This document shows positions 28,551 through 63,426 of a stretch of DNA of 64,000 bases, piece after piece. Numbering within the stretch: position 1 is the stretch's first letter; each line of letters begins with the position of its first letter. The stretch is from Candidatus Thorarchaeota archaeon (GTDB lineage Archaea; Asgardarchaeota; Thorarchaeia; Thorarchaeales; Thorarchaeaceae): assembly GCA_046482545.1 (NCBI GenBank), contig JAWOEX010000039.1, forward strand, positions 96,001 to 160,000, written 5' to 3'. Made by a program: the position numbers and the translations under genes. The notes below the pieces were generated by a model that did not search any database, was not told the DNA's origin, and saw nothing but the letters and a program-made list of their open reading frames with translations.

Positions 28551-28678
28551 GATAACCTGTTTCTTACACATTATGTGAACACAATCTGGTTGAAACTTCT
28601 AGGTTCCACCCGGCCCCCGTAAGTGTCACCACCTCCAGAATGGCCGAAGGCTTCCTTGTGGTCCTCGGGGACTCATCA
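28551..28678 (-). ncRNA. Structured repeat element copy A (putative omega-RNA-like scaffold)
   Basis: Shares GGGTGGAAC-N6-GTTTCA and GTAAGAAACAGGTTATC with copies B and C; 21 nt identical to B (28548-28568 = 43477-43497). Confidence 0.6.
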
Positions 28679-29013
28679 AATATGGGCTATCCAAGATTTC
28701 TATTCCTCAGATTACAGGCAAGAGTATTTTTCTTGCTGGGAATAAGTTGGGCTGGTCGTATTAAATTAGGATTTATCGATACAATTATTGACTCAGCCCC
28801 AATGAGTCCAACAACGCGTTCCATAGGGGTCATTCGGTTGCTCCTTTTGGTCTGATGGTTTGAGCGTCTTTCAGGGTGGATTGGGAAAGGCAATCGGTAG
28901 AAAGATACCGGAAATCCAAACATCAAATCTACTCATGGGCCAATCAAAAGTATCTCTCTATGAAATTCCTTGAATGAGATTCTGCCCCATCTCTTTTAAC
29001 GAGAGAAAACCAT

Positions 29014-29514
29014 CTTGTCATTATTCCAAAGGACTTAACGAGTCCTAGTGGGAAAAAGTACTACGCACCTCTTGCCACAAATGATAGCAGGTAATATCTC
29101 AGGAGTTATTGGTGCTGCACTCTATGCCCTTTCTGTCACTGTCTACCTGAGTATGCAGAAGACAGTGATGCTATTGCTGTAGCGTCAATCAAAATGTGGA
29201 TAGATTTACCATGTCCAGCTATTCTGTGATTCATTCTCTTTTTCCAGCTTCGCCAACCATATCATTCGTCACTACGGTCTTTCTGGCACTGTCTTTCATT
29301 ATAGGTGCCGTGGTTGAAGGTACCGTGTATCTACTGAACCAAGAATGTATCGGGTATCAGTAGTGTTCCTGATATCCACAAGTCTTCCAGTGTTGACATA
29401 CATACTAACAGTATTGTTCCTTTGAGAACCGCTTATTCACTTTAAGATTGGCAGGTTCCATTGGGGCCTTTTGGGGTTATCAAAGCCTCACTAGAGCAAG
29501 ACAGAGGCGGCGAT
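29014..29514 (+). pseudogene. Decayed duplicate of upstream region and 5' half of EamA gene 30570-31472
   Basis: Colinear nucleotide similarity to 30521-31025 (e.g. tatgccctttctgtcactgtcta, tcaatcaaaatgtggatag); ATG changed to ACG, frameshifts and stops. Confidence 0.88.
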
Positions 29515-29578
29515 TTGTTGAGGGGCCCTAATGTCGGTATCCTATAGTGTAAAAGTACCTCAAGACTGCAGAGTCAAC

Positions 29579-30484
29579 ATGACACTTCTCACCCAGGATC
29601 TTCTGATTGGCGTTTCTGCAGGATTGCTGGAGGCTGTTCTCTATGCTGCTTCGGTGACGGTATACAAATCACAGGAAGAGGGGATTCGGCCAATTGCAAC
29701 CAGCGCCATTAAGATTTGGGTGACCTTGGGTTTAATGACTACACTTGTTCTCGTTTTCTATGGAACACTACCGCTCTTCATGTCCCTGGGTACCTTATTC
29801 ATTCTCGCCCTATCAATTGTCGGACCTGTGATAGCAGATACACTTTATATTCAAGCCCAAGATAGAATTGGAGTTGCATTTGCTTTCCCAATTGCTTACG
29901 CATATCCGATTATGACGTATCTTCTCAGCGCTGCTTTCTTAGGAGAATCCCTACGTTTGACCAGGTTAGGGGGAGTCATCGTAGCGGTAGCAGGAATCGG
30001 TATCATCTCCTATGAGCGGAACAGGGAAACAGCTAAGGAGTTCAGATTAGAAGCTGGTCGTGTCGTCGGCATATTTCTCGCCATTTGTGCCCTGATTGGA
30101 TATGCAGTAGCTGTGGTATTGCTGCAAGTAGGACTGGAGGGTGTAGATCCCCTGCCGGCCAACTTCATTCGTTCCATTTTCGGTTCAATTGCGTTTCTGC
30201 CCATCTATGCAGGAGCTAGGATAAGTGGCATGAAGAAACCCAACCGACGATCCGCAGCAATCGTCGCTGTTGCCGCGCTGTTCGGATTCGGTTTAGGCTC
30301 ACTACTGTACACGATAGCAACCAAGTATGTTGGTGCAACCATCACTTCACTCCTCGATTCCATGGCCCCCATATTCGGTTTGGCCATTGCGGTCCCATTC
30401 CTAGGAGAAAAAGTCACCAAGAGAGTCATATTAGGAACCATCATGAGTGTAACAGGGGTCGCCATTGTCATCTTAGGATTTTGA
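29579..30484 (+). CDS. EamA/DMT transporter
   Basis: Paralog of 24464 and 30570 (QDRIGVAFAFPI, FLGE twice); start moved to 29579. Confidence 0.9.
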   Translation: MTLLTQDLLIGVSAGLLEAVLYAASVTVYKSQEEGIRPIATSAIKIWVTLGLMTTLVLVFYGTLPLFMSLGTLFILALSIVGPVIADTLYIQAQDRIGVAFAFPIAYAYPIMTYLLSAAFLGESLRLTRLGGVIVAVAGIGIISYERNRETAKEFRLEAGRVVGIFLAICALIGYAVAVVLLQVGLEGVDPLPANFIRSIFGSIAFLPIYAGARISGMKKPNRRSAAIVAVAALFGFGLGSLLYTIATKYVGATITSLLDSMAPIFGLAIAVPFLGEKVTKRVILGTIMSVTGVAIVILGF

Positions 30485-30569
30485 TGAGATGGTCATCTGC
30501 GTCGAATCAATCAAATGGACCTTGTCAACATCCCAAAGGACTTAACCACCCCTCAAGGAGAATCATGCT

Positions 30570-31472
30570 ATGCAGCTCTCGCCAGATATCATAGCAGGTA
30601 CTGTCTCAGGAGTTCTTGGTGCTGCGCTTTATGCCCTTTCTGTCACTGTCTATCGACGGTATGCAGACAACATCGATGCCATTGCGGTGGCTTCAATCAA
30701 AATGTGGATAGCATTACCATTTACAGCTGTTCTGGCACTCATTCTCTTTTTTCCAGCTTTACCAACCATATCATTCATGACCATGGTCTTTCTGGCTCTG
30801 TCAGTCATTCTAGGTGCAGTAGTTGGGGATACCATATACTTGGTGAGTCAAGAACGTATCGGAGTATCAATCGCGTTCCCGATATCTATGAGCTTCCCAG
30901 TCTTAACATATATACTGACAATATTCTTTCTTGGAGAAGCGCTTATCCCTGTAAGATTAGCAGGCACCATTGTGGCCGTTCTGGGTGTCATCATAATCTC
31001 ACGGGAACAAGACACAGGTGGTGATGAACATGAGAGTGAGGGTTATGATGTTCTCGGCATATTTCTTGCATTTCTCACGTCGGTATTGTATGCTACTGGA
31101 GCTGTCATACTTCAAGTTGGAGTCACTGATGTGGATCCGATATCAGGAAACTTGGTTAGAATCTTTTTTGGTTCAATTGCGTTCCTTCCACTTTTTGCTT
31201 TCGGTAGAAAAAGGGGCATGCGCATACCTCCATTGCGGGTAATCAAGGTCGTGGCAGTTGCCGCCCTTTTTGGAATGGCGATTGGTTCAATACTCTACGT
31301 TAATGCGACAAAGCTCCTGGGGGCAGCTACTACATCTGTCATTGTCTCATCAGCCCCGATCTTTGCAGTTCCAGTATCCGTGAAGTACCTCAATGAGCGG
31401 GTGACTCCGCGCATGGTCATTGGTATCATCGCCACTATTCTTGGTGTCGCACTAGTAGTTCTGACTTCGTAG
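30570..31472 (+). CDS. EamA/DMT transporter
   Basis: SQERIGVSIAFPI, FLGE, LNERVT. Confidence 0.9.
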   Translation: MQLSPDIIAGTVSGVLGAALYALSVTVYRRYADNIDAIAVASIKMWIALPFTAVLALILFFPALPTISFMTMVFLALSVILGAVVGDTIYLVSQERIGVSIAFPISMSFPVLTYILTIFFLGEALIPVRLAGTIVAVLGVIIISREQDTGGDEHESEGYDVLGIFLAFLTSVLYATGAVILQVGVTDVDPISGNLVRIFFGSIAFLPLFAFGRKRGMRIPPLRVIKVVAVAALFGMAIGSILYVNATKLLGAATTSVIVSSAPIFAVPVSVKYLNERVTPRMVIGIIATILGVALVVLTS

Positions 31473-31542
31473 ATTTCGAATATCAGGCGAAAACAGAAGT
31501 GCTTATTTCATACAGAAAGGAATGTATTAGCTGTGCTGTAGA

Positions 31543-32892
31543 ATGAGTAACGAAATCGTCGAATACATAGAGAACCATCTAGAAGACGCCATTGAGGATC
31601 TCGGTGAATTGTGCTCGATTCCATCAGTTGCTGCAAAGGGAGAACATATGAAAGAGGCTGCCGGTAAAACCAAGCATCTATTTGAATCAGCCGGCTTAGA
31701 AACATCCATTCAGCAAACATCAGGGTTTCCAGTCGTCGTTGGTGAACTCGACGTAGGTGCTGAGAAGACACTTCTGTTCTACGATCATTATGATGTCCAA
31801 CCTGCAGAGCCATTCGACCTTTGGGATACGCCACCCTTTGAATTGAACCGGCGAGATGGAAGGCTGTACGGTAGGGGAGTTGCTGACAACAAAGGAGACC
31901 TCATAACCCGTGTTTGGGCTCTCAAGGCATTCCAAGATAGTGCTACCGATTTGCCGGTCAACATCAAATTCATGGCGGAAGGTGAGGAAGAGATTGGTAG
32001 CCCACACCTCCACGAATTTGTGAAGGAGAATAAGGATTTCTTAAAGGCAGATGGTGGTATTTGGGAATTTGGCAGTTCCGATATAGAGGGAAGGCAAGAA
32101 GTTTGGTTAGGCCTCAAAGGGCTCCTCTATGTTCAACTTGAGATTGAACGATTAGCTATGGATGCCCACTCTTCCTATGCATGCATACTTCCATCGGCAG
32201 CTTATCGCCTAATTTGGGCTTTGAACTCGCTGAGAAACGAAGACAATCAAATTCTGATTGATGGTTTCTATGATGATGTCAAACCACTTTCCGAAGCTGA
32301 ACGAAAGGCAATCATGAACAATGATATGCATGAGAATGAAGTGCGCGAGTTCTATGATATCCCTGAGTTTCTTAATGGCATGACAGGAATGGAGTTGAAA
32401 GAGGCCTTCTATAATGCACCAACCTGTAACATCGCTGGAATAGACAGTGGTTGGCAGGGTAGTGGGGCAAAGACTGTACTGCCAGCGAAAGCATCTGTCA
32501 AAATCGATTTCCGCCTTGTGGAATCCATGCGCCCCGAGGATATAGTCAGAAAGCTCCGAAAGCATCTGGATAGAAAGGGTTTCTCAGACATCAAAATCGC
32601 GTGGCATCATGGCTATCCAGCCGCCAAGACCCGAATTGACCATCCGTTTGTCGATATTGCAAGAAAATCTACTAGACAGATTTTTGGTCATGAACCCGTG
32701 GTACATCCGACGAGTCCAGGGTCCGGCCCGCTATATCTCTTCAAGGGATTGGTGCCAATGGTCTCGGTGGGTTGTGGTGATTTCGAGTCCAGAGTGCATT
32801 CACCCAATGAGTCTATCATTGTTGAGAATTTCCTGAAAGCAACACAACGAATAGCCGCAGTAATTCAAAAGATGGGGGAGCAAACCGTCTAG
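31543..32892 (+). CDS. M20 family dipeptidase-like metallopeptidase
   Basis: HYDVQP, GRGVADNKG, EGEEEIGS, HSPNE. Confidence 0.92.
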   Translation: MSNEIVEYIENHLEDAIEDLGELCSIPSVAAKGEHMKEAAGKTKHLFESAGLETSIQQTSGFPVVVGELDVGAEKTLLFYDHYDVQPAEPFDLWDTPPFELNRRDGRLYGRGVADNKGDLITRVWALKAFQDSATDLPVNIKFMAEGEEEIGSPHLHEFVKENKDFLKADGGIWEFGSSDIEGRQEVWLGLKGLLYVQLEIERLAMDAHSSYACILPSAAYRLIWALNSLRNEDNQILIDGFYDDVKPLSEAERKAIMNNDMHENEVREFYDIPEFLNGMTGMELKEAFYNAPTCNIAGIDSGWQGSGAKTVLPAKASVKIDFRLVESMRPEDIVRKLRKHLDRKGFSDIKIAWHHGYPAAKTRIDHPFVDIARKSTRQIFGHEPVVHPTSPGSGPLYLFKGLVPMVSVGCGDFESRVHSPNESIIVENFLKATQRIAAVIQKMGEQTV

Positions 32893-32947
32893 TTCTCAGG
32901 GCCACTTCCGAGTTTAGCCCACGCGTGGCCCACAATACTCACAGGTG

Positions 32948-33418
32948 GCCATGTTGCCAGATTCTGCTGATTCAGATTTTGAAAACTTGTTAGCGCCTGT
33001 TCAAGGTTAGTCTTTGCTTCAGAAAGCTGGCCTAGTCCACGAAGAGGATTCACCAGACCGAAAGCATTCCAAGGAATGTACCATTGGTCAACAGTACTCT
33101 CAGCAGGAATCTATCCCATTCTGTCGGAAATATGTAGTTCATTCTTTGAGCTGCAACTTGGCCTAATTCCCGGCTGGCAGCAGACTCATACCGCTTGGTA
33201 GGTGCTTCTTTCAATAGCTCTTCATAGCGTTGTTACGTACTGTTAAGGTCACATTGGTTCATTGTGCAATCAACCATGACACGCAGTGCTTCAGTGGCCC
33301 GTTCGGGTCTATCCCCTTTCAAGAAAGATTTCCGTCCCTGTTCCGCTAAATTGAGTGCCTCTGCAAATTGTGATCTTTGATGCATATCTGCAGCTTGTTG
33401 AGGAAGGTTCTCACAATT
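32948..33418 (-). pseudogene. Decayed TPR-like helical repeat protein
   Basis: Manual translation: QFAEALNLAEQGRKSF...ATEALRVM...ST*QRYEELL...ELGQVA, frameshift, LRGLGQLSEAKTNLEQALTSF. Confidence 0.65.
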
Positions 33419-33596
33419 TGATGAAATGACCTAGTTTCAAAGAAATTTGGCATATAAGGAGCTCTCATTACTTGTGAAAAGGCGCCGAAAGCCCTAGAGT
33501 ACTCACCCTAAGAAACCGCAAGATTTCTATCTTATAACCAGATTGTCTACAGTAGGCTGTTCACTACAGCAACACTTCACCGTCGGAGGTTAGACT

Positions 33597-35129
33597 TTGA
33601 AGGATATTCCACGTGATTGGTCCTGGATCGGAGACTGGGCTGGAAGAAGAGCGACGCTTACTCCCAACAAAGAAGCGTTTTTCGATAACACAACAGACAA
33701 ATTGTATACCTACGCAGAAATGGAAACGAGAGCAAACCAGCTTGCGCGAGTACTCCAAGAATACGACATCAAGAAAGGGGATCGAGTGGCAACATACGCA
33801 AAGAATCGGTTTGAAATGATCGACCTTTTTCTAGCTACCGGAAAGATTGGAGCAATACTAGTTCCATTCAATGTGCGGCTAGCACCAAGAGAAGTTGAAT
33901 ACCTTCGTAGGAAGACCGAGCCATCACTGACGGTTTACGATTCAGACATAGGCCAGAGCTTTGAGGAAGTCAGACCGGACCACAATGTCTTAGCAATGGG
34001 AGAACCCGTGAACGATGATGACCAAGATATTAACGAACTCATGACTGAAGAATCCGCCGAACCTGTAGAAAGACCTACGCTGGTATTCGACGATCCACAC
34101 ATGATTGTATTTACTGGAGGGACCACGGGGCTTCCCAAAGGTGCGATACTCTCACATCGTCTCATCTTCTGGAACTCGGTTAATACCTGCATGAGTTGGG
34201 GGCTTCGACCAGATGATGTCCAACCTTTGTTGTTTCCGTTGTTTCACACAGGAGGGTGGAACGTGCTTTTGGTGCCCTGTTATCATCTTGGCGCAAAAAC
34301 CATACTCATGGGAGATTTTGACCCCAAGGAAACATTGCGAGTTATCGAAGATGAGAAGTGCACCATAGTGATAGGCGTTCCAACCATGTTTCAGATGATG
34401 GCTCAACATGAGAAATTCAAGAAGACCGATTTCAGCTCGGTCAGGGTCTTCATAAGCGGAGGAGCTCCATGCCCAGTAGCAATTATGGAGAATTATTGGG
34501 AGAAAGGCAAGCCGTTCAAGATGGGGTATGGTCTAACGGAAGTTGGTCCAAACAACTTCTACCTTCCAATAAGTGACATCAAGAAGAAACCTAATTCTGT
34601 GGGGTATCCTGTACTCCATTGTGATATGAAAATTGCAAATGAGGATGGCGAGGAGGTTCCACAAGGCGATGTGGGAGAGTTGCTTCTCAAAGGGCCACAC
34701 ATATTCTCAGGATACTGGGATGAGCCTAAGGAAACGAAAAAAACGATTGACCCGGATGGTTGGGTACACACCGGAGATCTTTGCCAAAAGGACGAAGACG
34801 GGGCTTACTACATCGTTGGCAGGAAGAAGGACATGTTCATCTCAGGAGGAGAAAATGTGTATCCCCCTGAAATAGAAGATGTCCTCTATAAGCATCCTGC
34901 GGTGATGGAGGCTGCAGTCATTGGTGTGCCCCATGATAAGTGGGGCGAGGTTGGCAAAGCATTCATTATGCTGAAACCAAACAAGTCCGCAACAGTAGAA
35001 GAAATCAAAGACTACTTGGATGGCAAGATTGCGAAATACAAGAGTCCAAAATATTACGAAATCAGGGAGGATTTGCCAATGAGTGCTGCGGGAAAAATTC
35101 TGAAACGGCAGCTGGAAGAAGAGGAGTAA
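33597..35129 (+). CDS. Long-chain acyl-CoA synthetase (AMP-forming)
   Basis: FTGGTTGLPKG, GYGLTE, TGD, GRKKDMFISGGENVYP, GKILK. Confidence 0.93.
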   Translation: MKDIPRDWSWIGDWAGRRATLTPNKEAFFDNTTDKLYTYAEMETRANQLARVLQEYDIKKGDRVATYAKNRFEMIDLFLATGKIGAILVPFNVRLAPREVEYLRRKTEPSLTVYDSDIGQSFEEVRPDHNVLAMGEPVNDDDQDINELMTEESAEPVERPTLVFDDPHMIVFTGGTTGLPKGAILSHRLIFWNSVNTCMSWGLRPDDVQPLLFPLFHTGGWNVLLVPCYHLGAKTILMGDFDPKETLRVIEDEKCTIVIGVPTMFQMMAQHEKFKKTDFSSVRVFISGGAPCPVAIMENYWEKGKPFKMGYGLTEVGPNNFYLPISDIKKKPNSVGYPVLHCDMKIANEDGEEVPQGDVGELLLKGPHIFSGYWDEPKETKKTIDPDGWVHTGDLCQKDEDGAYYIVGRKKDMFISGGENVYPPEIEDVLYKHPAVMEAAVIGVPHDKWGEVGKAFIMLKPNKSATVEEIKDYLDGKIAKYKSPKYYEIREDLPMSAAGKILKRQLEEEE

Positions 35130-35135
35130 TCGTAA

Positions 35136-36164
35136 ATGAGTTACAAACCTATTGGCATTGAAGCTATTGGAACATATATCCCGCCAGAGCGACACACTGC
35201 TGAGTACATCTCCGAACGCTCTGGCACGCCTGTTGATATCATGAAAACCAAGATTGGGTTGAAGAGCAAGGCAGTTCCAGGGGACGGAGATCACACCGTG
35301 GCGATGGGAGTGAAAGCAGCTGAAGTCGCAATCAAAAGAGCAGATATAGACCCTGAGAAGGATATTGACCTAGTCATCTGGGCAGGAGAAGTGTACGCGG
35401 AGCATCCTATGCAGACATACGGCATCAAGTTTCAAGGAGATATTGGAGCAACCAATGCTTGGGCATTTGACATCAACCAGCGCTGTGGTACTATCATCGT
35501 TGCCATGATGGTAGCTAAATCTATGATGAGAACTCATGGCTATGAACGGGTTATGATTGGCAGTGGGTACAGAAACTGCGACCTAATAGACTACAGCAAC
35601 ATCACAACAAGGTTCATGCATGACCTTGCGGCTAGTGGGGCTGCAGTCATATTACGGAATGACTACCCCAAGAATGTGATGCAAGAAGGCAGTGTGATAT
35701 CTGATGGTAGATTCTCAGAATATGTCTATGTCCCTGCTGGGGGAACGAAAATGCCTATCACTTGTGAAGCGATAGAGAAGGGATTGCATTATCTGGATGT
35801 CACAAATCCCAAGAAATTGAAGGAAGAACTCGACGACGTCTCCATGGAGAACTTCCTAAAAGTAGTTGACCAATCTCTAGAGAGAAGTGGATATACACGT
35901 GAAGATATAGACTACCTGGGCCTCATTCGGATGAAGCGGAGTGCCTTCGAGTACGTTGCTGAGGAACTCGGAGTCGATCCCTACGAAGAATCCACTTACT
36001 TCGAAGAATACGGACACATGGGACAGAATGATGCCATTGTCTCAGTCGAAGAGGGTCGCAGAGACGGTAAGATACACGATGGGGATCTCGTTGTTCTGAC
36101 AGCGGCAGGGATTGGTTGGTCGTGGAACGCACTTACGATAGAGTGGGGGAACCATAGGAGGTAA
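35136..36164 (+). CDS. 3-oxoacyl-ACP synthase III-like (FabH/KAS III superfamily) protein
   Basis: NQRCGT catalytic Cys, GYRN, YGHMGQND, AAGIGWSW. Confidence 0.85.
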   Translation: MSYKPIGIEAIGTYIPPERHTAEYISERSGTPVDIMKTKIGLKSKAVPGDGDHTVAMGVKAAEVAIKRADIDPEKDIDLVIWAGEVYAEHPMQTYGIKFQGDIGATNAWAFDINQRCGTIIVAMMVAKSMMRTHGYERVMIGSGYRNCDLIDYSNITTRFMHDLAASGAAVILRNDYPKNVMQEGSVISDGRFSEYVYVPAGGTKMPITCEAIEKGLHYLDVTNPKKLKEELDDVSMENFLKVVDQSLERSGYTREDIDYLGLIRMKRSAFEYVAEELGVDPYEESTYFEEYGHMGQNDAIVSVEEGRRDGKIHDGDLVVLTAAGIGWSWNALTIEWGNHRR

Positions 36165-36169
36165 ATGAA

Positions 36170-36598
36170 GTGAATGATATTACAATTCCAAGATACTCAG
36201 AAATAGAAATAGGTCAGACCGCCGAAGTTAAACACACCATAACTGAAGAGGACATTCAATCCTTTGGCGAGCTGAGTGGCGACAGGAATCCCTTGCATTT
36301 CAATCAGGAATGGGCTGAACAAACAATGTTTAAGGGACGAATTGCCCACGGGTTGCTTACGGCTGCTTTTGTGAGTACTGCAATTGGTATGAAACTACCC
36401 GGCCCAGGTACGATATATGTCAGTCAACATATGAATTTCAAAAGGCCTGTTCGAATCGGGGATAGCATTACAACAAAGGTTGAAGTAGCGGAGAAGATGG
36501 ACGAGAAGAAGCATATCAAACTCAATACAACTGTAGTGAATCAGGATGGGAAAACGGTCCTAGATGGATATGCGATTGTAACCTTGATGCGTAGATAG
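36170..36598 (+). CDS. MaoC-like (R)-specific enoyl-CoA hydratase
   Basis: SGDRNPLH, IAHG, FKRPVRIGD. Confidence 0.92.
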   Translation: MNDITIPRYSEIEIGQTAEVKHTITEEDIQSFGELSGDRNPLHFNQEWAEQTMFKGRIAHGLLTAAFVSTAIGMKLPGPGTIYVSQHMNFKRPVRIGDSITTKVEVAEKMDEKKHIKLNTTVVNQDGKTVLDGYAIVTLMRR

Positions 36599-36642
36599 AA
36601 CTGAGGAGAAGCCTGTGAATACATCCACTGGATTTCACCCCA

Positions 36643-38466: not shown

Positions 38467-38740
38467 TATTCGTGAGGCTCCCGTAATGCTCTGAAACCGC
38501 TTTGGGTTGTGCCTTGAATCTTCATTGCGGCCCCAAGACCAAGTCTACTAAATTTTCCTGGTTTTCTATAAAAAGCATCCGAATCAGTGTACCCTCTCTT
38601 ATCATGTCTCCAAGTATTTCCACATTGTTTCTACATATTAGACTCGACTATTCTGTTTCTTTCAGAAAACCTTCCCCCTACGGCGCATATGTCTGAAATA
38701 CTATTCAAACAACCCGCTCCTTGCTTCAAGATGCTGTGTA

Positions 38741-39511: not shown

Positions 39512-39618
39512 ACACTTCTACCCCTCATTTTTGAATAATTTGTGGGCCATAAATATCATCCGATGCTTTAAAGTAGGACCGTTTCTATAAGAGTAGTACT
39601 TACTTGGGGTGAGAAATT

Positions 39619-43333: not shown

Positions 43334-43479
43334 GCAGGTTAATGCCCCGAAGAATAGATGAACCATGATTCTCAGAGAAAAATCAGACATGCTCCCTTTT
43401 GTATATTGTTAAGGCCTAGACCCTTCTGGGCCATAATTGGGTGGTAGGCGCCCATCAATCTGTACACTTAACTATTCTA

Positions 43480-43960
43480 GATAACCTGTTTCTTACAGTT
43501 TTAGGAACTGTGTGAAACTCCTGTGTTCCACCCTTCCCCTGCCCAGCGTTGCCGCTATACCGGGGCACTACCCCGGCCAAGCAAGGGCTTTGGCCGCCAT
43601 CATCAGGACACGGTCCCTCGTGCGGTCTCGGCTTCTGTCTCCTGCCCTGACCCGGACACATCACTCCCGGGGCAGCGAGTGTTTCCACAGCTTTTGCCAC
43701 GGCGGAGTTATTATCGCTCGCTCCAGTCTCGTCACCGAAACTGGACAGGTCCAGTTGGACAAAGCGAACAGCCGCAGACTCTCCAGGGCCTGATGAGGAC
43801 CCTTGTTTGGAGAGTGAGGTCTTCTGCTTAGAAGACGGGGTCTTCCTCACAGCCTTCGGGCTGGGCGCTTCTCCCGCGGGGGAGTGGCCCACCGCCCTAG
43901 TCCTACTAGACTCGGATTTCTTACTAGGCCTAATAAACTCCCCTCGTCCGGTGTGACAAT
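43480..43960 (-). mobile_element. GC-rich non-autonomous element; its 3' ~125 nt are structured repeat copy B (probable IS200/IS605-tnpB remnant)
   Basis: Abrupt GC-rich hairpin-rich segment; 43480-43603 homologous to copies A and C; family assignment is inference. Confidence 0.55.
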
Positions 43961-44044
43961 AGTACTTGCAGGAAATTTTATACAAATCTTACACATTTGC
44001 ACTCGGATTTTTACGATTCTTGTAAAACTTGCCTACTCTAGATG

Positions 44045-44175
44045 GGCTCTGTGTGAAAAGTCAACAAGGAAGTAAGGAAACGGAGCAATCAAATTACAAG
44101 ATGCCTGATTTCTAACTTCATTTCCCTGTTTTGCGATCAGTCACATTCATCGCTAAAGACTTTTCACACAGCACC
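44045..44175. mobile_element. MITE, 131 bp, 18-bp terminal inverted repeats, flanking direct repeat
   Basis: GGCTCTGTGTGAAAAGTC (44045-44062) vs GACTTTTCACACAGCACC (44158-44175), 16/18 match; CTCTAGATG at 44036-44044 and 44176-44184. Confidence 0.88.
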
Positions 44176-44316
44176 CTCTAGATGCTAGGGCTTATATTGT
44201 CTTGTTCACCATACAAGTTGCTTACAATCTAGATATTCCAGGTCGCACATTTATTGACCAAAGAAATACCTTAGATATAATGAACAGCAGACCAAGTGTG
44301 AGTGGGAGGTTAGATA

Positions 44317-51793: not shown

Positions 51794-51865
51794 AAGTATT
51801 CTCACTGCCTCTAGCAATTTCCTCTTGTGAGAGCTCAAAAACTTGTTGCTTGGATTCTCGGTGAC

Positions 51866-52330: not shown

Positions 52331-52462
52331 TTGATTCAACCTGCCTGTATGAATATTGCTTTCTAATGATTTAGCAAGAAGAGGGATTCTTCGTGATTAG
52401 TATCTCCTAAAGAAAACACATGCCTTATCAAGCGAGATTCTCGAGTAATCATAGTGATTTCC

Positions 52463-53122: not shown

Positions 53123-53129
53123 TATTCTG

Positions 53130-53648: not shown

Positions 53649-53709
53649 TGTACCTACTTCCTTGGATACCCTTTTGTTTCGTTCCTAATAAACAAGATTT
53701 GCACAGATA

Positions 53710-54375: not shown

Positions 54376-54559
54376 GGACACTTCTGTACAAAACCGTTTG
54401 CCTTGTATAGAAGATTGAGCAGCCGCGTTCATGCAATTGCTGAAAATGAGCAAAAGCATTAGTGACTGGACTAGAGTTATCCACAAGAAGGATGCAGTAG
54501 CCACAAGGCAACGAAGAATGGACAGTAACTTCGCTGCCCTGTGATACTGTCTGTTCCAA

Positions 54560-55624
54560 TTACTTCTCGTAGAAGTATTTCCCTTCGGAGTAGATTACCT
54601 CATCTCCTGCCAGCACTTTTCCTTGCTTCATGTTTTTTATCATATCAACATGTACGGCACTGTCATTAGTCCCATTACAGTCCTTGTATGCTCTACCCAA
54701 AGCGCAATGCACAGTATCGCCTATCTTCTCGTCGAAGAGCATGTTGAGCGTATACTCCTTAATGCCACGATTTGTTCCGATAGCCATCTCACCAAGATAG
54801 CGAGAGCCTTCGTCCGTATTGATGATAGACTCCAGTACTTCTTCGTTCTTTTCCGCCGAGTAATCAACAACTTCACCGCTTTCGAAGACAAGCCTTACGC
54901 CTTCGATAACCTTGCCCTGCTGCATAAACGGAATATCGAAGTAAATCGTGCCTTCAACGGTATCTTCGACAGGTGCAGTGAAAACCTCTCCACTTGGCAT
55001 GTTATGTTTTCCATCGGATGCTACCCAGATTCGTCCTTCGGTTGAGGCTTGGAGATCTGTCTCGGGTCCTACAAATCGGACATCATCGTGTCGTTCCAGA
55101 TGCTCTTTCATGAGATACATATTCTCACTTGCTTGTTCCCAATCGATGAGTGTAGCATTGTATACGAAGGTCTGGTACTCGTCTAGGCTCATATTGGCTT
55201 GTTGAGCCAATGTTCGGCACGGATGGACGGTCCCGCACCATCGCTTATCCATGATGATATCGCTTAGCTCTTTGCGTGTCTTGCGGGAAATCATTTGTCT
55301 TTTCGGATCAACATTGGCCATAGCTTTGGTGTTTACTGGCGAGCTGACACCGATGAATACGTCTGCAGCTTCAACCGCAGCTTTCTGGTGCTTTGGGAAG
55401 ATTTTCAGTGTCTCGTCCGATGCTCCGTCAAAGAAGGCTCTGGAGGCCTCTTCGCTTGACATCAAAACCATTGGAACTGCGCCTGCCTTGGCTATTTCGC
55501 GGTTTAGTGCGACAACCAAATCATGGGCATCAGGGTGCGCTCGGATTATTACCATGTCGCCTTCTTGGACTTCGGTAGACCATTCGACAAGAATTTGTGC
55601 ATGTTTCTCAATTCTCGAATCCAT
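54560..55624 (-). CDS. M29 aminopeptidase (AmpS/AmpT-like)
   Basis: NMPSGEVFTAP, GEMAIG, FDEKIGDTVHCALG, SAVHVD. Confidence 0.93.
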   Translation of the reverse strand: MDSRIEKHAQILVEWSTEVQEGDMVIIRAHPDAHDLVVALNREIAKAGAVPMVLMSSEEASRAFFDGASDETLKIFPKHQKAAVEAADVFIGVSSPVNTKAMANVDPKRQMISRKTRKELSDIIMDKRWCGTVHPCRTLAQQANMSLDEYQTFVYNATLIDWEQASENMYLMKEHLERHDDVRFVGPETDLQASTEGRIWVASDGKHNMPSGEVFTAPVEDTVEGTIYFDIPFMQQGKVIEGVRLVFESGEVVDYSAEKNEEVLESIINTDEGSRYLGEMAIGTNRGIKEYTLNMLFDEKIGDTVHCALGRAYKDCNGTNDSAVHVDMIKNMKQGKVLAGDEVIYSEGKYFYEK

Positions 55625-55769
55625 AGAATATCACAACAAATAGAATCTGAGAATATGCAGGTGATATAGATTCCGAATGCAGCGACAACATATTGAATCT
55701 CAAACTAAAGAGTCATACAAACAGGGATACAAATGGGGTTTCCAACTATTGGCACCTGAAGACTCGGGA

Positions 55770-56200
55770 AGTTGGTATATCAGCTGTGTAGATGGCTCGT
55801 TGAGCACCGGTGGGGTTTATCTTGTTATGGTGGCCTTTACTGATACGACTAATCTATAGACGAATTTTCCGTGGGTATTTTATGCGTTCTTTGAGATAGT
55901 GGTTGTGACTGCTATTCTCAGGTTCGTGGGCAAAGGCTGGAGACTTGACTCGCATAGAAAGGATGAATTCATCAAGGTTGACACTAGTTTACTTCGGAGC
56001 GTTGTTGTCAATGACGAATGAATCATTTTCGGGCCACCTCAATCAACATTAGGTGAGGCGTGACGTGCAGACTTGTCTTTCGAGACTATCAAAGAGGAGG
56101 GCAAGTGAATTATCGAGAACACACAAAGCAATGATATCACTCGAAAACGGTTGTCGGACTATGACGGGATTGCCATAATCGTGGCGAAATACGGTTCGGA
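55770..56200 (+). pseudogene. Decayed paralog of the TM + ubiquitin-like gene at 56367
   Basis: One frame with 4 stops: ...FIKVDTSLLRSVVVNDE*IIFG...EA*RAD...GK*IIENTQSNDITRKRLSDY; aligns to FTEVDTSQLHRVVI...NDITDKKLSDY. Confidence 0.82.
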
Positions 56201-56366
56201 ATGCACCCGAAACTATCACATCGAGAGTAGGTCTTACTCCTCGATAGAAGACAGCGTCGAATTCTATGGTTGCTCATGAACCACTCTCATGAAACAGCAC
56301 TTTTGCAGTTAAAACATAAAAGCAGAAATGTCGGAAATGTAAGTGTACGTAGGAGGTCCAAGAATA

Positions 56367-56849
56367 TTGGATTACGAGTCAATTAAGAATCTTGCCAAGC
56401 TCTTTGTGTCAGCGTTTGTTGTTACCGTAATGTTCATCTTACTCTATCCGTTCCTAGGGCCATATCTATTGTTCTCGAGCTTGATGAATACCCCATTGGG
56501 GTTGTTTGTGATGGCTTTCACTACTGCGCTGGTGGCAGTCACACTTTTCTCCTATGCGAACAGCCGAATTGGTGCTGCTGATCAAAGAGACCGTAGTTTC
56601 ACCGAGGTTGATACTTCTCAATTGCACAGAGTAGTTATTGATAACCTCACCGGTGAAGAAAAAGTAATCTCGGGGAGTCAAGATGTAACATTTCGATCGG
56701 CAGCTCAGAAAAACTGGCCTTTTGAAAGAATAGACAAAAAATCAAACTGGGTAATCGTAGATGAGCGTGGAAACGATATTACGGATAAGAAACTAAGCGA
56801 TTATCATGAAATCACCAGAATACAACTGAAACATGAAACCAGTGGGTAG
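56367..56849 (+). CDS. Two-TM membrane protein with C-terminal ubiquitin-like domain (putative)
   Basis: TTG start after AGGAGG; two TM; soluble domain aligns by eye to ubiquitin (LTG, LSDY). Confidence 0.7.
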   Translation: MDYESIKNLAKLFVSAFVVTVMFILLYPFLGPYLLFSSLMNTPLGLFVMAFTTALVAVTLFSYANSRIGAADQRDRSFTEVDTSQLHRVVIDNLTGEEKVISGSQDVTFRSAAQKNWPFERIDKKSNWVIVDERGNDITDKKLSDYHEITRIQLKHETSG

Positions 56850-56908
56850 TGAGGGTAGCACAAAGGCACTGGAAGTCGGTTCATAGATATACCCGAAATT
56901 GTGGATTT

Positions 56909-57556
56909 CTAGCCGCACTGCCTTGACCGTTCAAGCAAGTTCCTGACTTCTTCGTCAGTGGTCTGCGAGAAGTCTTCATACCAAGCCCCGACTCCAAAGA
57001 AAGGAGATGGTGTAACAAGACTAACTGTATCATCAACCATTGAGTCGAGTTCCCTTAGAGTGTCAGGAGGTGCCGTTCCCACAGCTACCACCAAACGTTT
57101 TGCACCAGCTTGCTTCAATCCTTTGACTGCAGCCCGCATAGTAGCCCCAGTAGCCATTCCATCATCAGCAAGAATTATCGTCTTGTCCTCAATGTCAGCC
57201 TCGAGTAGGGCGCTCCCATACTGTTTCTGGCGTCTTTCAAGCTCTTTCTGTTCCTTCTGGACTACTTGCTCGATGCTCTCTTGTGTGAGATCCGCCCGGT
57301 GTACCATATCTTGGTTGATGGTCTTTATTCCACCCGAAGCAATAGCTCCGAATGCGACCTCTTGGTTGTATGGCAAGCCAAGTTTCCGCACAATTAAGAC
57401 ATCTAACGGAGCATCCAAGCTTTCAGCTATCTCATACGCGACTGGAACGCCGCCTCTGGGAAGTCCCAAAACCATCACATCGTTTTGGTCCTCGTATTCA
57501 GCAAGTTCCTTGGCCAGCTTTCTGCCTCCTTCACGGCGGTCTTCAAAGCGATTCAT
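56909..57556 (-). CDS. Phosphoribosyltransferase family protein
   Basis: FEDRREGG, LPRGGVPV, ADDGMATGAT. Confidence 0.9.
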   Translation of the reverse strand: MNRFEDRREGGRKLAKELAEYEDQNDVMVLGLPRGGVPVAYEIAESLDAPLDVLIVRKLGLPYNQEVAFGAIASGGIKTINQDMVHRADLTQESIEQVVQKEQKELERRQKQYGSALLEADIEDKTIILADDGMATGATMRAAVKGLKQAGAKRLVVAVGTAPPDTLRELDSMVDDTVSLVTPSPFFGVGAWYEDFSQTTDEEVRNLLERSRQCG

Positions 57557-57767
57557 GGCCCATCATTCTCTTGACGAGCTTTCTTCCTCTCCTGATTTAT
57601 TCTTAGGTTTGGTAATTCTATTGGGTTGAAAAGGCGAAAAGTAGAGCGTTGGAAGAAGCTCAAATCCCTCTCAAGTCCATTTTCCAGCGGTAGGGTGTTC
57701 AAAATCCTCTGGAAAATCGACTCGCCAGTCACTATAAGAAGACTGGAGGGAATCAGTGCTACGTGCG

Positions 57768-58016
57768 TTATTCTACGAGAAATACCTCATCATGCTTGCG
57801 TACACGGTTCTTTACTTTGATAGCTATCTCTTGACCTGGCTTACCTGTCTCAATTGGGTCACGGTCGACTTCCATCGAGTCGATTTTCTGCTCGAAATCT
57901 GTAGTATGACCTTTGATTCTGACTGTGTCACCCACGTTCAACTCATCTTCAAGCATGATTGCGGCAACGTCTATATTCGTGAAATAATGTGTGATTTCTC
58001 CAACTTTTCTCTCCAT
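57768..58016 (-). CDS. EF-Tu domain 2-like small beta-barrel protein
   Basis: VGEITHYF, GDTVRIKGHTTDFEQ, GQEIAIKV. Confidence 0.82.
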   Translation of the reverse strand: MERKVGEITHYFTNIDVAAIMLEDELNVGDTVRIKGHTTDFEQKIDSMEVDRDPIETGKPGQEIAIKVKNRVRKHDEVFLVE

Positions 58017-58086
58017 GATTTTCATCCACACTCCATAGGTGGTTCCTACCTAGAAAAAGTCTTTGTGTTGCACAAAAACTGATTTT

Positions 58087-59082
58087 CTATCTAGGTTTTA
58101 CAAATCCACGCCACTCAACCATATCTTCAACAGTAGATACCAAGCCCCATTTGGAACGGTACCCGAGCTCTTCACGGATTTTGCTATCGTCAATGATGTA
58201 CTCCGAACCAAACATCTTTGCCCTGAAAGCAGTTAGGAGAGGAGCATTGTCTCGCCCAAACGCTCGATACAGTGACCCCAAAAATCCCCCCACAGTCTTG
58301 GCCAGTCCATATGGAATCTCCCTAAATGATGGTTCGACATCAACTTCCTCTGCTATCGCTTCCATGAGCTTTCTGAACTCACAGGTAAATGACGTTACGT
58401 TGAATGCTTCATTTCTGGCTGACTCGAAATTCTCTGCGGCCACAACAAGACCACGCGCGACATCCTCTGCATGAACGAAACTCTGTTCATTGCTCCCGTC
58501 GCCAAAAACGACCATGCTCCCCTCTTCAATCCGCTCAATAAACTGCGGACCCGTGAACAGGTCTCCTTCACCGAGAACAACAGGGGGTCTGATCATCGCC
58601 GCTTCAATACCATAATCAGCCACGTATCGGCGAATCAATTCCTCTGAAGCCAGCTTGGACTCTTGATATGCGTTGGCTGGATTCTTTTCCCAATCTTCCG
58701 TGATAGGCTCAGAAGTCTCCGGAAACCCATATACCGCGGTAGAGGAAGTATGCAATAAGCGAGGGATGTCCTTTCGACGAATCACTTCGAGTATGTTCTC
58801 TGTTCCACCAACATTGACCGGAAAGAAATGCTCCTTGTCTCCCCAATCGGCCATGATGGCGGCGTTATGAAACAACCACTCTGTTGAATCCGGAATACCT
58901 TCCAGAAGGGTGTCCAAGTCAGTAACATCGCCCACAGTCGTTTCATATTCAAGGCCGTCCAAGAGATTTAGGCTTGAATCCTCTCTGATGAGGATGCGAA
59001 CGTTGTGTCGATTTTGTCTGAGTTGTTTGACGATGTGATGCCCGATGAAGCCGGTAGCCCCGGTAACAAAGCAATCAGCCAT
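58087..59082 (-). CDS. NAD-dependent epimerase/dehydratase (3beta-HSD-like)
   Basis: TGATGFIG, HTSS, YQESK. Confidence 0.9.
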   Translation of the reverse strand: MADCFVTGATGFIGHHIVKQLRQNRHNVRILIREDSSLNLLDGLEYETTVGDVTDLDTLLEGIPDSTEWLFHNAAIMADWGDKEHFFPVNVGGTENILEVIRRKDIPRLLHTSSTAVYGFPETSEPITEDWEKNPANAYQESKLASEELIRRYVADYGIEAAMIRPPVVLGEGDLFTGPQFIERIEEGSMVVFGDGSNEQSFVHAEDVARGLVVAAENFESARNEAFNVTSFTCEFRKLMEAIAEEVDVEPSFREIPYGLAKTVGGFLGSLYRAFGRDNAPLLTAFRAKMFGSEYIIDDSKIREELGYRSKWGLVSTVEDMVEWRGFVKPR

Positions 59083-59179
59083 TGATATTCATTGAAATAA
59101 CGAAACACCGCATCTTAGGTCTTTCGAACACAAGGTATAATGGGTAGTAGTAAGCGATAGGAATAAACTAGGTGATAAG

Positions 59180-59512
59180 ATGACTTCGAAAGTTTTAGTG
59201 ATAATAGCAAGCTCAAATGCCGATACTGCTCTGGCAGGAATGATGTACGCACGCAATGCGATTGCTCACAAATGGCTGGATGATGTCAAGGTCGTATTCT
59301 TCGGCCCATCCGAAGAGCTGCTGGCTTCCAATGAGCAGGTTGCCAAGTCTGCAGCCGCTCTTGCTGATGTTTCTGAACCACTTGCCTGCAAGTATATCTC
59401 CGACCAGCAAGAAGTATCTGAGGATATTACTGGATTGGGAGTAGGTGTCGAGTATGTAGGCACGGTCGTCTCGGATTTCATCAAGCAGGGATATACTCCT
59501 ATGGTTTGGTAG
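59180..59512 (+). CDS. DsrE-like protein
   Basis: WLDDVKVVFFGPSE, PLAC, GVEYVG. Confidence 0.75.
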   Translation: MTSKVLVIIASSNADTALAGMMYARNAIAHKWLDDVKVVFFGPSEELLASNEQVAKSAAALADVSEPLACKYISDQQEVSEDITGLGVGVEYVGTVVSDFIKQGYTPMVW

Positions 59513-59657
59513 TAGCAGTTCTGCGATCAATAGGCGAATTTCAACCTCATTTGGAAGCTACAACATGAGACATCAGGCATGAGGGCTTTGTCTTTCTCCT
59601 CAATCCCGCTCCACATGTTCTTCTTCAAACATGTTCAATATTTCGCCTTTGGAGCTA

Positions 59658-61082
59658 CTAGTGATGGTGATGTTCATGACCACCAAGCGGAGCTAGACTG
59701 CCGGCGGCCCGCTGAACGACCTCCGAAAGCGCTGGATGAATGTGAATGGCTCGCAGCAAAGGTACGAAACTCTCATTCTGTGTATACATAAGATTGGCAA
59801 TTTCTTGGATGAGTACAGGAGCATGGGGTCCGATAATGCTAGCTCCAAGCAACCTACCTGATTCTTGATCTGCTATGATTCGAACAAAGCCCTCTGGATT
59901 GCCCATAGCCATGCCTTTTGCGGTATCGATGTAGGGCGCCTTGCCAACAAGCAATTCATGGTCGGATTCCTTGGCTTCCCTCAATGTCATGCCAACTGTA
60001 GCAATTTGTGGGTCGGAGAAGACGGCTTTAGGTACTGCGTGATAGTCGGCAGGAACAAGTTCTTCGTCACTAACATCCGGGTCATTGATTGACTTGACCA
60101 TGTTGTGCCAGACCATTTGTGATTCATCATTGGCCATATGACGGAACATGTGCTTGCCAATGGCGTCTCCAAATGCCCAGATTCGTTCCTTTGAGGTGTG
60201 GAAGTAATCATCTACGATTATCCATCCGTTCTCGTCCGTGTCCACACCGGTATTCTCCGGCTTTAGCAGATCCGAGTTCGAACGACGACCCGTCGCAATC
60301 AGTATTTCCTCAGCTTCAAATTCTAGCTCTTTCCCGATCTCCCGATTCTTGGCAATTGCTTTTTTGAGATTGCCTGACTCTTCAGCATGCACTACTTCAT
60401 GGTTAGTATACACATGCATACGCTTGGACAGCTCAGACTTCAATAAATCAGAAACATCATGATCTTCATCAGGTACAAGATAGGGATTCCTTCCTAGGAT
60501 GGTCACATCGGTTCCAACAGCAGAGAAGAAATGTCCAAATTCAGCTGCTATGTAACCGCCCCCCACAATAATCAATGAATCAGGTTTCTCCGTAATCTCT
60601 AGAATGGTCTTACTGGTATGGTAGTTGATATCATCAATTCCATCTATGGGAGGTATGAGGGGTCTGGCCCCACTGGCTAATACGATGTGCTCGGCTCGAA
60701 TCTTCTCACTGCCAACCTGCATCGTGTAGTCGTCAATGAACTCGCCGGTCTTATTGTAGAAATCGTAGTTCTCGGTTTGAGCAACAGATTTCTCAATTTG
60801 CTCAGAATCACCCCATGTCTCTTCGTGCATTCGCTCCATCAAACCCTGAAAATTGACCTCATCAACGCTCGCCTTCAGGTTAATGTCTTCGGACTTCTCG
60901 ATTCTCCTGATAGTATCAGCAACATACACGAGAATCTTCGTGGGTATGCAACCCCGATTTAGACAGGTACCACCAAATCTTCCGTTGTCAATAATAGCAA
61001 CAGACAGACCCTGTTGATATGCAGGTGCTGCCACATTTGCTCCAGCTCCAGATCCGACTACTAACAAATCGTAGCGCTTCAT
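59658..61082 (-). CDS. Dihydrolipoamide dehydrogenase/mycothione reductase-like flavoprotein disulfide reductase
   Basis: GSGAG, GGTCLNRGCIP, GGGYIAAE, HIHPALSE; start at MKRYD 61082. Confidence 0.9.
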   Translation of the reverse strand: MKRYDLLVVGSGAGANVAAPAYQQGLSVAIIDNGRFGGTCLNRGCIPTKILVYVADTIRRIEKSEDINLKASVDEVNFQGLMERMHEETWGDSEQIEKSVAQTENYDFYNKTGEFIDDYTMQVGSEKIRAEHIVLASGARPLIPPIDGIDDINYHTSKTILEITEKPDSLIIVGGGYIAAEFGHFFSAVGTDVTILGRNPYLVPDEDHDVSDLLKSELSKRMHVYTNHEVVHAEESGNLKKAIAKNREIGKELEFEAEEILIATGRRSNSDLLKPENTGVDTDENGWIIVDDYFHTSKERIWAFGDAIGKHMFRHMANDESQMVWHNMVKSINDPDVSDEELVPADYHAVPKAVFSDPQIATVGMTLREAKESDHELLVGKAPYIDTAKGMAMGNPEGFVRIIADQESGRLLGASIIGPHAPVLIQEIANLMYTQNESFVPLLRAIHIHPALSEVVQRAAGSLAPLGGHEHHHH

Positions 61083-61204
61083 GATTGTTAAGTTTCTGAA
61101 TTGTATGATAAAGATAGTGGTCTGGAAAACGGAAACCTCACCTATGCCAATGTTTTTCACCACAAATTACAGGTTATTAAATATAGTTAAGAGAGGTGTT
61201 CATA

Positions 61205-61447
61205 ATGGAAGTAATCGAAAAAAGAGTTGCACAAGACAAAAACACGGTTATGAAAGAAGCCAAGGATTTCTTTGAAGGAAGACTAGGTCTCTCTCTTCGT
61301 GATGAAATTGAAAATTGCTGTCTTGAATTCAATACAGACCTTGGATTCATCAACGTTCAGGTAAATGAACGAAACGGGAAAACAGCAGTCACGCTTCGAA
61401 GCAGGGAATACGAAAGACAAGCTAGAGAGTTCCTCGACACTCTATAG
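61205..61447 (+). CDS. Small hypothetical protein
   Basis: GAGGTG upstream of ATG 61205; 80 aa with alpha/beta pattern. Confidence 0.7.
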   Translation: MEVIEKRVAQDKNTVMKEAKDFFEGRLGLSLRDEIENCCLEFNTDLGFINVQVNERNGKTAVTLRSREYERQAREFLDTL

Positions 61448-61567
61448 AGAATAAGGGGGTAATTTTCCCAATTTCAGTTGCCTCAATACGGATTGTATGT
61501 GTAATAGAATACCACAGAAAAACTATGAGCTGAGTTGAAACTAACTCCGGCTGTGATTGAATTTTGC

Positions 61568-61935
61568 ATGGCGTGCAGGACAGGAGGTTTTTTGGTCATT
61601 TGCATGCTTGCCCTGGTAGTCATGCCTCGCGGTACCTCTTCTGCTTCAATGACAACAGAATCAATCAAACAATGACTCTTTTTGGATAAGAGTGTATTTG
61701 ATTATCCTCACAATTACCATGGCCTGATAGAGGGTCTACTGGATGATGAAATCCAAGTTGTTGATGACGTAATACAATAGAGTGTCCTACCTGAATTAAG
61801 GGAAGCCGAGAACACCAAAACAGCTGAAATCCTCAGAGATGGCTATGGATATCTCAGCATCAACTGTGCAAAATATCCATTCCACATAACCGCATTCAGG
61901 AAGACTTTCGCATTTGCAATTGACAGTCATACTCT
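61568..61935 (+). pseudogene. Truncated family 5 substrate-binding protein pseudogene
   Basis: Signal peptide, two in-frame stops, LRDGYGYLSINCAKYPFHITAFRKTFAFAID, then similarity ends. Confidence 0.72.
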
Positions 61936-61995
61936 CTGCAGTGGTCATCCTCCGACTTACATCAGCAAAAGGGATAGAAAAATCTTAGATTGCGC

Positions 61996-63009
61996 TCATT
62001 TGTCGAAAAAGGTTGATTGTAGAGACGCTAGAAGTTCGTTTTCGCTGGCAAAATCTCTCTCCTCTATGGTATCAAAAACCTCTCTCACCTTTATGCTCTC
62101 ATCAGGTTTAATCCAAACCCACCAATCTCCACACTTTGAAAGTATTTCATCTTTGGTGATGGGATATTGTACATCAATTTCTGCCATTACAGCATCAGCG
62201 CCCCAAGAAACTTCTGGGAATTCGTTCTCTCGGAGGTATTGGACAAAACGCCTACAGTCGTTGTGCATCTCATAGTTGTTGAAGAGCACATAGACCATCT
62301 GATTCGCGTATTCCTCACATTTCTCATAGAGTCTCTTCAGGTCATCATTGGTGAATTTGTATCTATACTTCTGTGACCCTAATCCATGCAGTCTGAAGTA
62401 CTTCAGGTCAACATTATCAATCTTTAGCGTTTCACTCTTGAGAGGATCAACCACATTGACAAGCTTGTATTCATCACATAGATCGCTAATGATATCGTCA
62501 GTCCATTCAGCTCCACGGGTCTCCAATGCCAAAGAAAAATCGGCATCGGTGCCTTCCAAAAAATTGCTTAGATTGGATAGATGTTCGTCAGACGGTTCAA
62601 AACTTGAAGGCGTTTGAAGCAAGCAGATGTCGGCAGCCAGTTCTTCACAGATGGCTTTCGTTTCAAGCCATGCATCAAAAACCTCTTCGGTCGGTCTAAA
62701 GGAGCCATAATTGTCCACTTTCCCCTCCTCAACTTCAATGCCTCCTTTGTCATAGGTAGGACTTGAAGGTTCGTGAGTGATTCGTTGATTGGCCTTAACA
62801 ACGAATCTGAAATCAGAATTTACCTCATCGACTAGTTTCCGCCATTTTTGGGCAGTCCTTTTCATTGGCAATTTGTAGAAGGACGAATTCAATTCTAGAA
62901 GAGGATATTCATCCGAATAAGCCTGTATCTTCTGTACGTATTTTTCTTTCCACCCTTCAGGAGGTCGGTAGTATCTATATCCAGAACAACCAGGTACAAT
63001 CTGCGCCAT
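61996..63009 (-). CDS. DUF72 domain protein with C-terminal extra domain
   Basis: GCSGY, ELNSSFY, KANQRITH, LLQTPSSF, YFRLHG, LFNN; start MAQIV 63009. Confidence 0.88.
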   Translation of the reverse strand: MAQIVPGCSGYRYYRPPEGWKEKYVQKIQAYSDEYPLLELNSSFYKLPMKRTAQKWRKLVDEVNSDFRFVVKANQRITHEPSSPTYDKGGIEVEEGKVDNYGSFRPTEEVFDAWLETKAICEELAADICLLQTPSSFEPSDEHLSNLSNFLEGTDADFSLALETRGAEWTDDIISDLCDEYKLVNVVDPLKSETLKIDNVDLKYFRLHGLGSQKYRYKFTNDDLKRLYEKCEEYANQMVYVLFNNYEMHNDCRRFVQYLRENEFPEVSWGADAVMAEIDVQYPITKDEILSKCGDWWVWIKPDESIKVREVFDTIEERDFASENELLASLQSTFFDK

Positions 63010-63299
63010 TACATTCCCTGTTGTATCTTCAACTGCGCACCTAAAATTCCTTTCAAAACGTAAAATAAACAGCAAAATCAAATCAGAGGGAGTTTCCCTC
63101 ATCGAGAATACTAACCAAATGTTATTCTTGGAAATAAAACACCCCAATTAGCTGAATATGTCGTTGCGGCTATTCTCGATATCAATAGCGCAAAAGACCT
63201 GAGTGGAAGAACTAAAGCCCACGAACATGTTTTTGGTGCCATAATCATTAGAATATACAAATCTTGGCAACAAGACATGAATGGAGGAAATATATTCCA

Positions 63300-63426
63300 A
63301 TGAAGACGGACAAAGCCCCTGCTAACTCACGGGCCTACGGGTACCGTGGGAGCGGCGATGCTGGCAGGGGAAGGGTGGAACACAGAAGTTTCATGCAGTT
63401 CCTAGAACTGTAAGAAATGGGTTATC
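63300..63426 (+). ncRNA. Structured repeat element copy C (putative omega-RNA-like scaffold)
   Basis: ggcaggggaagggtggaacacagaagtttca...cagttcctagaactgtaagaaatgggttatc closely matches the reverse complement of copy B. Confidence 0.65.

Follow-up and report, generated by a model that had tools for sequence, protein, structure and literature searches.

The window considered here, a 64,000-nucleotide (nt) stretch of the genome of a Candidatus Thorarchaeota archaeon (contig JAWOEX010000039.1, positions 96,001 to 160,000), contains three dispersed segments, A and B on the minus strand and C on the plus strand, that share one RNA sequence. The initial annotation proposed them as a candidate three-copy family of standalone guide RNAs. 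Their strands and their common 3' end, GTAAGAAAYRGGTTAT, are as first described, and none of the three matches an Rfam family at the gathering score. However, the length of the unit had been underestimated: B spans 43481-44041 and C begins at 63283, while A matches only over 28553-28642. The three segments are almost certainly copies of one ~570-bp internal-deletion derivative (a mini) of a Thorarchaeota transposon, aCas1-TnpB, in which tnpB is accompanied by a gene for a Cas1-fold protein. Compared with shuffled sequences, the fold on these strands is stable for B (z -3.5) and C (z -3.2) and weak for A (z -1.7).

Copy B (43481..44041, minus strand) is a complete non-autonomous element of ~560 bp, with a left end, a TATA-like box, the whole RNA and a right end. 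The left end (44021..44041) consists of the core CTAGA, 9 nt and the subterminal TTTTACA, and forms an imperfect inverted repeat of the right end. The TATA-like TTTATTA (43931..43937), a putative promoter element, lies 33 nt upstream of the first RNA helix. The scaffold RNA itself (43481..43904, ~425 nt) is omega/tracr-like and homologous to the 3' end of tnpB, although its GTTCACTC anti-repeat loop is lost; a hidden Markov model (HMM) of 65 tnpB-linked RNAs matches it at 43904-43482 with an E-value of 1e-84. A long-range helix (43521..43690) joins CTGTG at 43686-43690 to CACAG at 43521-43525. The right end (43481..43497, TGTAAGA...GGTTAT) is the 3' end of the scaffold, and the right core CTAGA (43476-43480) together with its flank would be the cis guide (43461..43480), a boundary placed by analogy with the leader RNA described below, in which the guide follows GGTCAG. 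All of these features are on the minus strand. Two congeneric genomes lack copy B at the orthologous intergenic position, so it is a recent insertion. It sits within the terminal TCTAGA of a second, unrelated miniature element of ~135 bp (44037-44182), which has 19-bp terminal inverted repeats, TCTAGA on each side and about seven matches in the genome.

The other two copies are partial. Copy C (63283..63425, plus strand) is truncated at its 5' side and retains the last third of the RNA and the right end, again without the anti-repeat loop (HMM E-value 5e-20); its right core is CAAGA (63426-63430, plus strand). Copy A (28552..28642, minus strand) is a decayed remnant of the last ~90 nt of the RNA and the right end, in which the CACAG strand of the long-range helix is mutated (HMM E-value 7.5e-10), with CTAGG as its core (28547-28551, minus strand). 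The orthologous site of A was not found in the congeners.

A profile built from A, B and C gives ~80 matches in the 3.05-Mb genome, far above the three copies first counted. Extending these matches defines the ~570-bp repeat, which encodes no protein; 32 copies are full-length, more than half are truncated, and identity across the RNA region ranges from 57 to 95%. Positions 140-535 of the repeat correspond to the 3' end of ~550-amino-acid (aa) tnpB genes elsewhere in the genome. The RNA overlaps the 3' end of the intact tnpB genes found here, and the same holds at no fewer than 65 loci of relatives; a structured RNA that covers the tnpB 3' end and runs up to the end of the element supports the earlier suggestion of a TnpB omega-RNA. 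Likenesses to hammerhead ribozymes, C/D box RNAs, group I/II introns and RNase P, for which no diagnostic motif was present, were dropped once this overlap was found.

Two complete parents of 8.2-8.3 kb (C28:133386-141689 and C20:228518-236747) have the same RNA and ends as the minis and carry matching cores, TCAGGA and TCTGGA; a tnpB gene of this kind occupies G000:C28:133569-135203. In order from the left end, they carry the giant aCas1 gene, a shared promoter region, the short leader RNA, tnpB with the long RNA over its tail, and the right end. Downstream of tnpB, a variable region is followed by the motif GTTCACTCA, which is present in the parents, lost in B and C, and partial in A. The minis are better read as non-autonomous derivatives of such transposons that keep the whole RNA and a TATA-like box. 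Several rearranged copies were also seen in this genome: a ~55-bp palindrome in which two right ends stand back to back with the GTTCACTCA loop between them (G000:C28:231780-231835), two full minis in opposite orientation joined left end to left end (G000:C20:181316-182444), and a copy split by an IS5-like DDE transposase fragment, noted by eye only (G000:C22:70600-70845).

The TnpB encoded by these elements keeps the RuvC-I Asp and has Gly in place of the RuvC-II Glu; in front of the zinc finger it carries a shifted Glu, and it also has an NADxN motif. Among 67 homologues the shifted Glu is conserved in 66 and NADxN in all 67. This is the rearranged RuvC-II pattern, presumably active, that PMC10691335 describes. 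In one place (G000:C28:236400-237628), an in-frame fusion joins the start of an Lrp-type helix-turn-helix gene to a C-terminal half of tnpB.

Divergent from tnpB in both complete parents is a gene of 1400-2000 aa, which also adjoins tnpB in 31 of 39 tnpB loci of relatives. Sequence searches with the giant protein (Pfam, NCBIfam, PDB, ESM Atlas) gave no match, and its homologues are Thorarchaeota proteins, found in 43 of 76 genomes of the family and in 3 of 11 in one other family. In a model of its first 600 residues (predicted local distance difference test 87), residues 14-272 align to Cas1 and casposases, which fill the top 12 rows (Z 8.7-12.5, root-mean-square deviation 3.5-4.8), and residues 290-600 to the PD-(D/E)XK exonucleases MGME1, Cas4 and RecE (Z 6.5-8.7). 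A Foldseek search returned Cas1 rows only at an E-value of ~0.1. The next domain has a RecA/KaiC-like fold (Z 9-11) with no clear Walker A motif. In one parent, a 224-aa open reading frame of no known family lies between the promoter and aCas1 (L007:1867-2541), and two loci (L110 and L113) have reading frames of similar size in the same place.

The aCas1 protein is probably the mobiliser of the element. The genome, which is 99% complete, yielded no serine or tyrosine recombinase; a match to the serine recombinase family PF00239 was absent both from it and from the two complete parents, and the parents hold no extra gene of the size of PolB. IS200 TnpA is represented by one truncated, unlinked copy. 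The initial annotation had pointed to an IS200/IS605-type element with a TCAA end, but the partner is a Cas1-fold protein and TCAA is among the variants of the junction core. The last shared letters of the segments, C(T/A)AG, do not belong to the scaffold: they are the start of a CNNGA core that is also present at the left junction, so the likeness of TCAA to the ends of IS608 and ISDra2 is a coincidence.

The long RNA is a covarying scaffold of ~430-450 nt. An alignment of ~450 columns from 65 tnpB-linked RNAs (effective number 51) contains many canonical covarying pairs in at least 11 helices. Covariation in these homologues bears out two of the stems proposed earlier, the outer stem and the GNRA hairpin. 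The supposedly invariant fourth stem fares less well, with 70% canonical pairs; its presumed loop, CACAG, pairs instead with CTGTG ~165 nt upstream, with 99% canonical pairs and compensatory changes, and it is this long-range helix that replaces it.

Full minis begin just 5' of the first helix, and 21 of 28 copies here have the TTTATTA box 33 nt upstream of that helix. In congeners, 11 minis have it in the same register, of which 7 are exact, which suggests that the minis have their own promoter. Such conservation could mean that each copy is a standalone guide cassette kept by selection, supplying TnpB in trans with a different functional guide for defence or regulation, as the initial annotation had it. 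The full copies keep the entire RNA, 91% of their pairs are canonical, and metatranscriptome contigs from three studies cover the RNA region, a weak sign of transcription given that a DNA run gives the same multi-copy profile. The resident copies nevertheless decay neutrally: private substitutions number 0.50 per paired and 0.46 per unpaired column, and 41 of 54 break a pair. As these mutations ignore pairing and mostly break it, selection seems to act on the masters and not on the resident copies. Targets are not in excess either: 7 of 71 flanks have a target in the genome beside the candidate target-adjacent motif (TAM) defined below, against 12 of 142 controls. This search covered the genome and left out phages and plasmids, where a guide of 12-14 nt plus a TAM finds matches by chance, so that foreign targets lie outside it. 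Together with the many truncated copies and the absence of B in congeners, this makes selected standalone cassettes very unlikely; that TnpB uses the flank guides at all is possible, with the odds leaning slightly against it.

A second RNA is found upstream of tnpB. This leader of ~70 nt ends in GGTCAG, the same motif as the end of the long RNA, and the 12-15 nt that follow copy the TATA region of the same locus, at position -64 or -65 in 28 of 30 loci. The leader tail matches its own promoter at 13.0 of 14 positions and those of other loci at 9.2. A clade-specific motif precedes the promoter match: one clade has TTAAT, other clades TTCAT. By analogy with the TTGAT of ISDra2, TTVAT is a candidate TAM. 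Furthermore, a GAGTGAAC-TCAACTG block of the leader is complementary to the variable stretch and GTTCACTC of the long RNA. Across 53 loci, the predicted duplex has an energy of -20.1 kcal/mol for cognate and -16.2 for non-cognate pairs, and none of 10,000 permutations was as good. The effect also holds within one clade, and the changes extend even into the conserved motif. Since the leader and the variable stretch covary, the stretch published as a hypervariable region behaves as an anti-repeat, and the guide begins after GGTYAK. It is likely that the two RNAs act as a tracr/crRNA-like pair (trans-activating CRISPR RNA and CRISPR RNA) that represses the element's own promoter.

An alternative is that the mini RNA is an inert hitchhiker and the leader match a functionless local duplication of the promoter. 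The neutral decay of resident copies fits this, as does the loss of the GTTCACTC loop in B, C and 35 of 71 copies overall, although the cis hairpin is kept. It is highly improbable all the same: from locus to locus the duplicate changes along with the local promoter, at a constant offset, among elements whose proteins are just ~45-50% identical, the leader and the long RNA covary, and the minis have gained a TATA-like box at fixed spacing.

The genome has six leaders, five of them at tnpB and all single units, which rules out a set of dispersed crRNA-like units. The sixth is an orphan without tnpB, and its tail does not match an upstream promoter (G000:C38:60479-60549). A few relatives have a second repeat; no multi-spacer CRISPR array was found in this genome. 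In three loci (L103, L059 and L062) the terminal repeat motif occurs again behind the first guide, just past the scaffold end, resembling a two-unit mini-array. A 13-nt tail starting TGCATGCA after the scaffold end is fixed in ~12 loci of one clade (L041-L053), and a near match to it occurs in the downstream sequence of two others (L121 and L122).

At the insertion sites, both junctions carry T-CNNGA, with subterminal inverted repeats TYTTACA and TGTAAGA 9-10 nt inside the ends, and one relative with G to the left and T to the right sets the core at 5 nt. The NN of the core is identical at the two ends at 52 of 60 positions (22 by chance), while no significant match extends further (positions 6-14, p 0.2); a long target duplication of 10-14 bp was rejected accordingly. 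Nearest neighbours by left end share their NN in 15 of 30 cases against 3 expected, and some copies have mismatched cores. As the NN follows the left-end subfamily of the donor and mismatches occur, matching to the donor core fits better than a plain target duplication, which is doubtful.

These sites could be chosen by TnpB and its RNA, with a 5-nt CNNGA seed or, in relatives, 14-19-mers that match tRNA genes, and with aCas1 integrating there, in the manner of CRISPR-associated transposons. Insertion does occur exactly at the boundary between T and guide, with the core inherited, and in relatives the 14 nt past the scaffold match a tRNA gene at 13 or more of 14 positions in 26% of 50 loci, against 6% and 2% in controls. 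Yet the match at the insertion sites ends at 5 nt, the core is tied more closely to the left end than to the RNA part, and the tRNA matches lack TTVAT and vary in distance and direction from the ends. The tRNA concerned often adjoins the element, sometimes on the opposite strand; the matches could serve as homing guides or be left over from integration into tRNA genes, and many can be explained by the latter. Guided transposition of this kind is thus unlikely, as is its fuller form, a natural RNA-guided transposon made up of a Cas1-type integrase and a TnpB with a two-part guide, where TnpB picks the sites (tRNA genes among them in relatives) and represses its own promoter, with the minis as programmable cargo.

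Classical omega-RNA homing, in which TnpB cuts the empty sites left by excision as in ISDra2 (PMC8612924), would account for a scaffold that ends at the right end, a guide taken from the flank, and conserved catalytic residues. It predicts that the TAM is enriched at empty sites, but these lack TTVAT: T(-4) occurs in 0 of 50 sites here against a background of 29% (p 5e-8) and in 0 of 15 sites of congeners, 0 of 65 overall. Homing is therefore decidedly unlikely. Either the integrase dislikes T(-4), or TnpB destroys TAM-bearing junctions, for example when a guide is read across a circle junction; no circle junctions are listed in the sequencing contigs of the RNA region, which proves nothing.

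The element belongs to the aCas1-TnpB family, predicted as a distinct transposon family marked by the GTTCACTCA motif (PMC10691335, section 9, citing Makarova et al. 2020). As far as that account goes, Cas1H-Asgard-1 and -2 share with it an Asgard host, a Cas1-fold partner by tnpB, flanking repeats and GTTCACTCA downstream of tnpB; its main text does not describe the ends, the target core, the fold of the RNA, the leader RNA or the minis, all of which are analysed here. It proposes as guide the hypervariable stretch that precedes GTTCACTCA, whereas here this behaves as an anti-repeat/stem and the guide boundary lies ~25-30 nt further 3'. Like the right-end RNA of ISDra2 TnpB, the long RNA covers the tnpB 3' end and the right end and has a flank-derived guide, with TTVAT in place of TTGAT. 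It differs in its length (~430-450 against 150 nt), the lack of a Y1 TnpA, the rearranged RuvC-II, insertion sites that avoid the TAM, and a second RNA that would act in trans. An anti-repeat:repeat duplex and a short match to the own promoter beside a protospacer-adjacent motif or TAM recall type V Cas12f tracrRNA:crRNA, Cas9 tracr-L and crlRNA mini-arrays, although here there is no CRISPR array and the effector is a transposon TnpB. Short guides on the own promoter repress the nuclease in Cas9 tracr-L and crlRNA systems (10.1101/2023.03.03.530964); the word TnpB does not occur in that survey. Casposons (PMC9939771) likewise have a Cas1-fold integrase, terminal inverted repeats and a frequent tRNA association, but they differ in having PolB and a 15-bp duplication, compared with a 5-nt core, no PolB, an integrase fused to nuclease and RecA-like domains, and a TnpB as cargo.

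Taken together, the best explanation is that A, B and C are copies of a mini derived from aCas1-TnpB, a transposon with a tracr/crRNA-like scaffold and a leader guide to its own promoter; we put its probability at roughly 0.8. The parent identity, the ends, the covarying fold, the partner folds, the complementarity and covariation of the two RNAs, and the match of the 12-15-nt leader tail to the TATA region after TTVAT are all read from sequence and predicted structures. Several points weigh against it. Eight of the 39 tnpB loci have no adjacent aCas1; the aCas1 domain is missing the beta domain that Cas1 has at its N terminus and matches no Cas1 family of Pfam, its assignment being at the level of fold; and the survey of helpers left out the genome's other DDE and IS110 transposases. 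The TTAAT before the TATA box could be a B recognition element and not a TAM, and the candidate TAM is absent at insertion sites. Finally, the loci are related, so permutation p-values and mutual-information scores overstate, and the covariation scores carry no correction for phylogeny (R-scape was not used).

If this explanation is right, aCas1 would move parents and minis in trans, inserting them at T^CNNGA targets that agree with the 5-nt core of the donor left end. The long RNA would be the TnpB scaffold, serving in cis as a single guide that stops at the right end, and as the tracrRNA for the leader in trans, whose guide would be too short for cutting; TnpB would then sit on the promoter and repress the element. 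It is plausible that TnpB serves the minis in trans. Active masters would keep their ends, promoter and intact fold, allowing minis to spread, and minis would decay once inserted.

Elsewhere in the window, a stretch of ~500 bp is duplicated (29014-29514 and 30521-31025, 78% identity): two tandem EamA transporter genes share their start and the sequence upstream of it.

The aCas1-TnpB family had previously been predicted from gene neighbourhoods only. The copies described here supply its ends, target rule, whole scaffold RNA, guide boundary and candidate TAM. In the searchable literature, to which Makarova et al. 2020 did not belong, no paper describing the leader RNA or the long-RNA fold turned up, and we could not find the RNA anatomy, guide boundary, leader pairing or target rule there. 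The copies also provide what is needed to test an Asgard Cas1 as a transposase. If true, an array-free TnpB with a tracr/crRNA-like pair and autorepression would represent an independent step on the path from TnpB to Cas12, beside a Cas1 integrase, and the avoidance of the TAM at insertion sites would break the standard model of TnpB homing.

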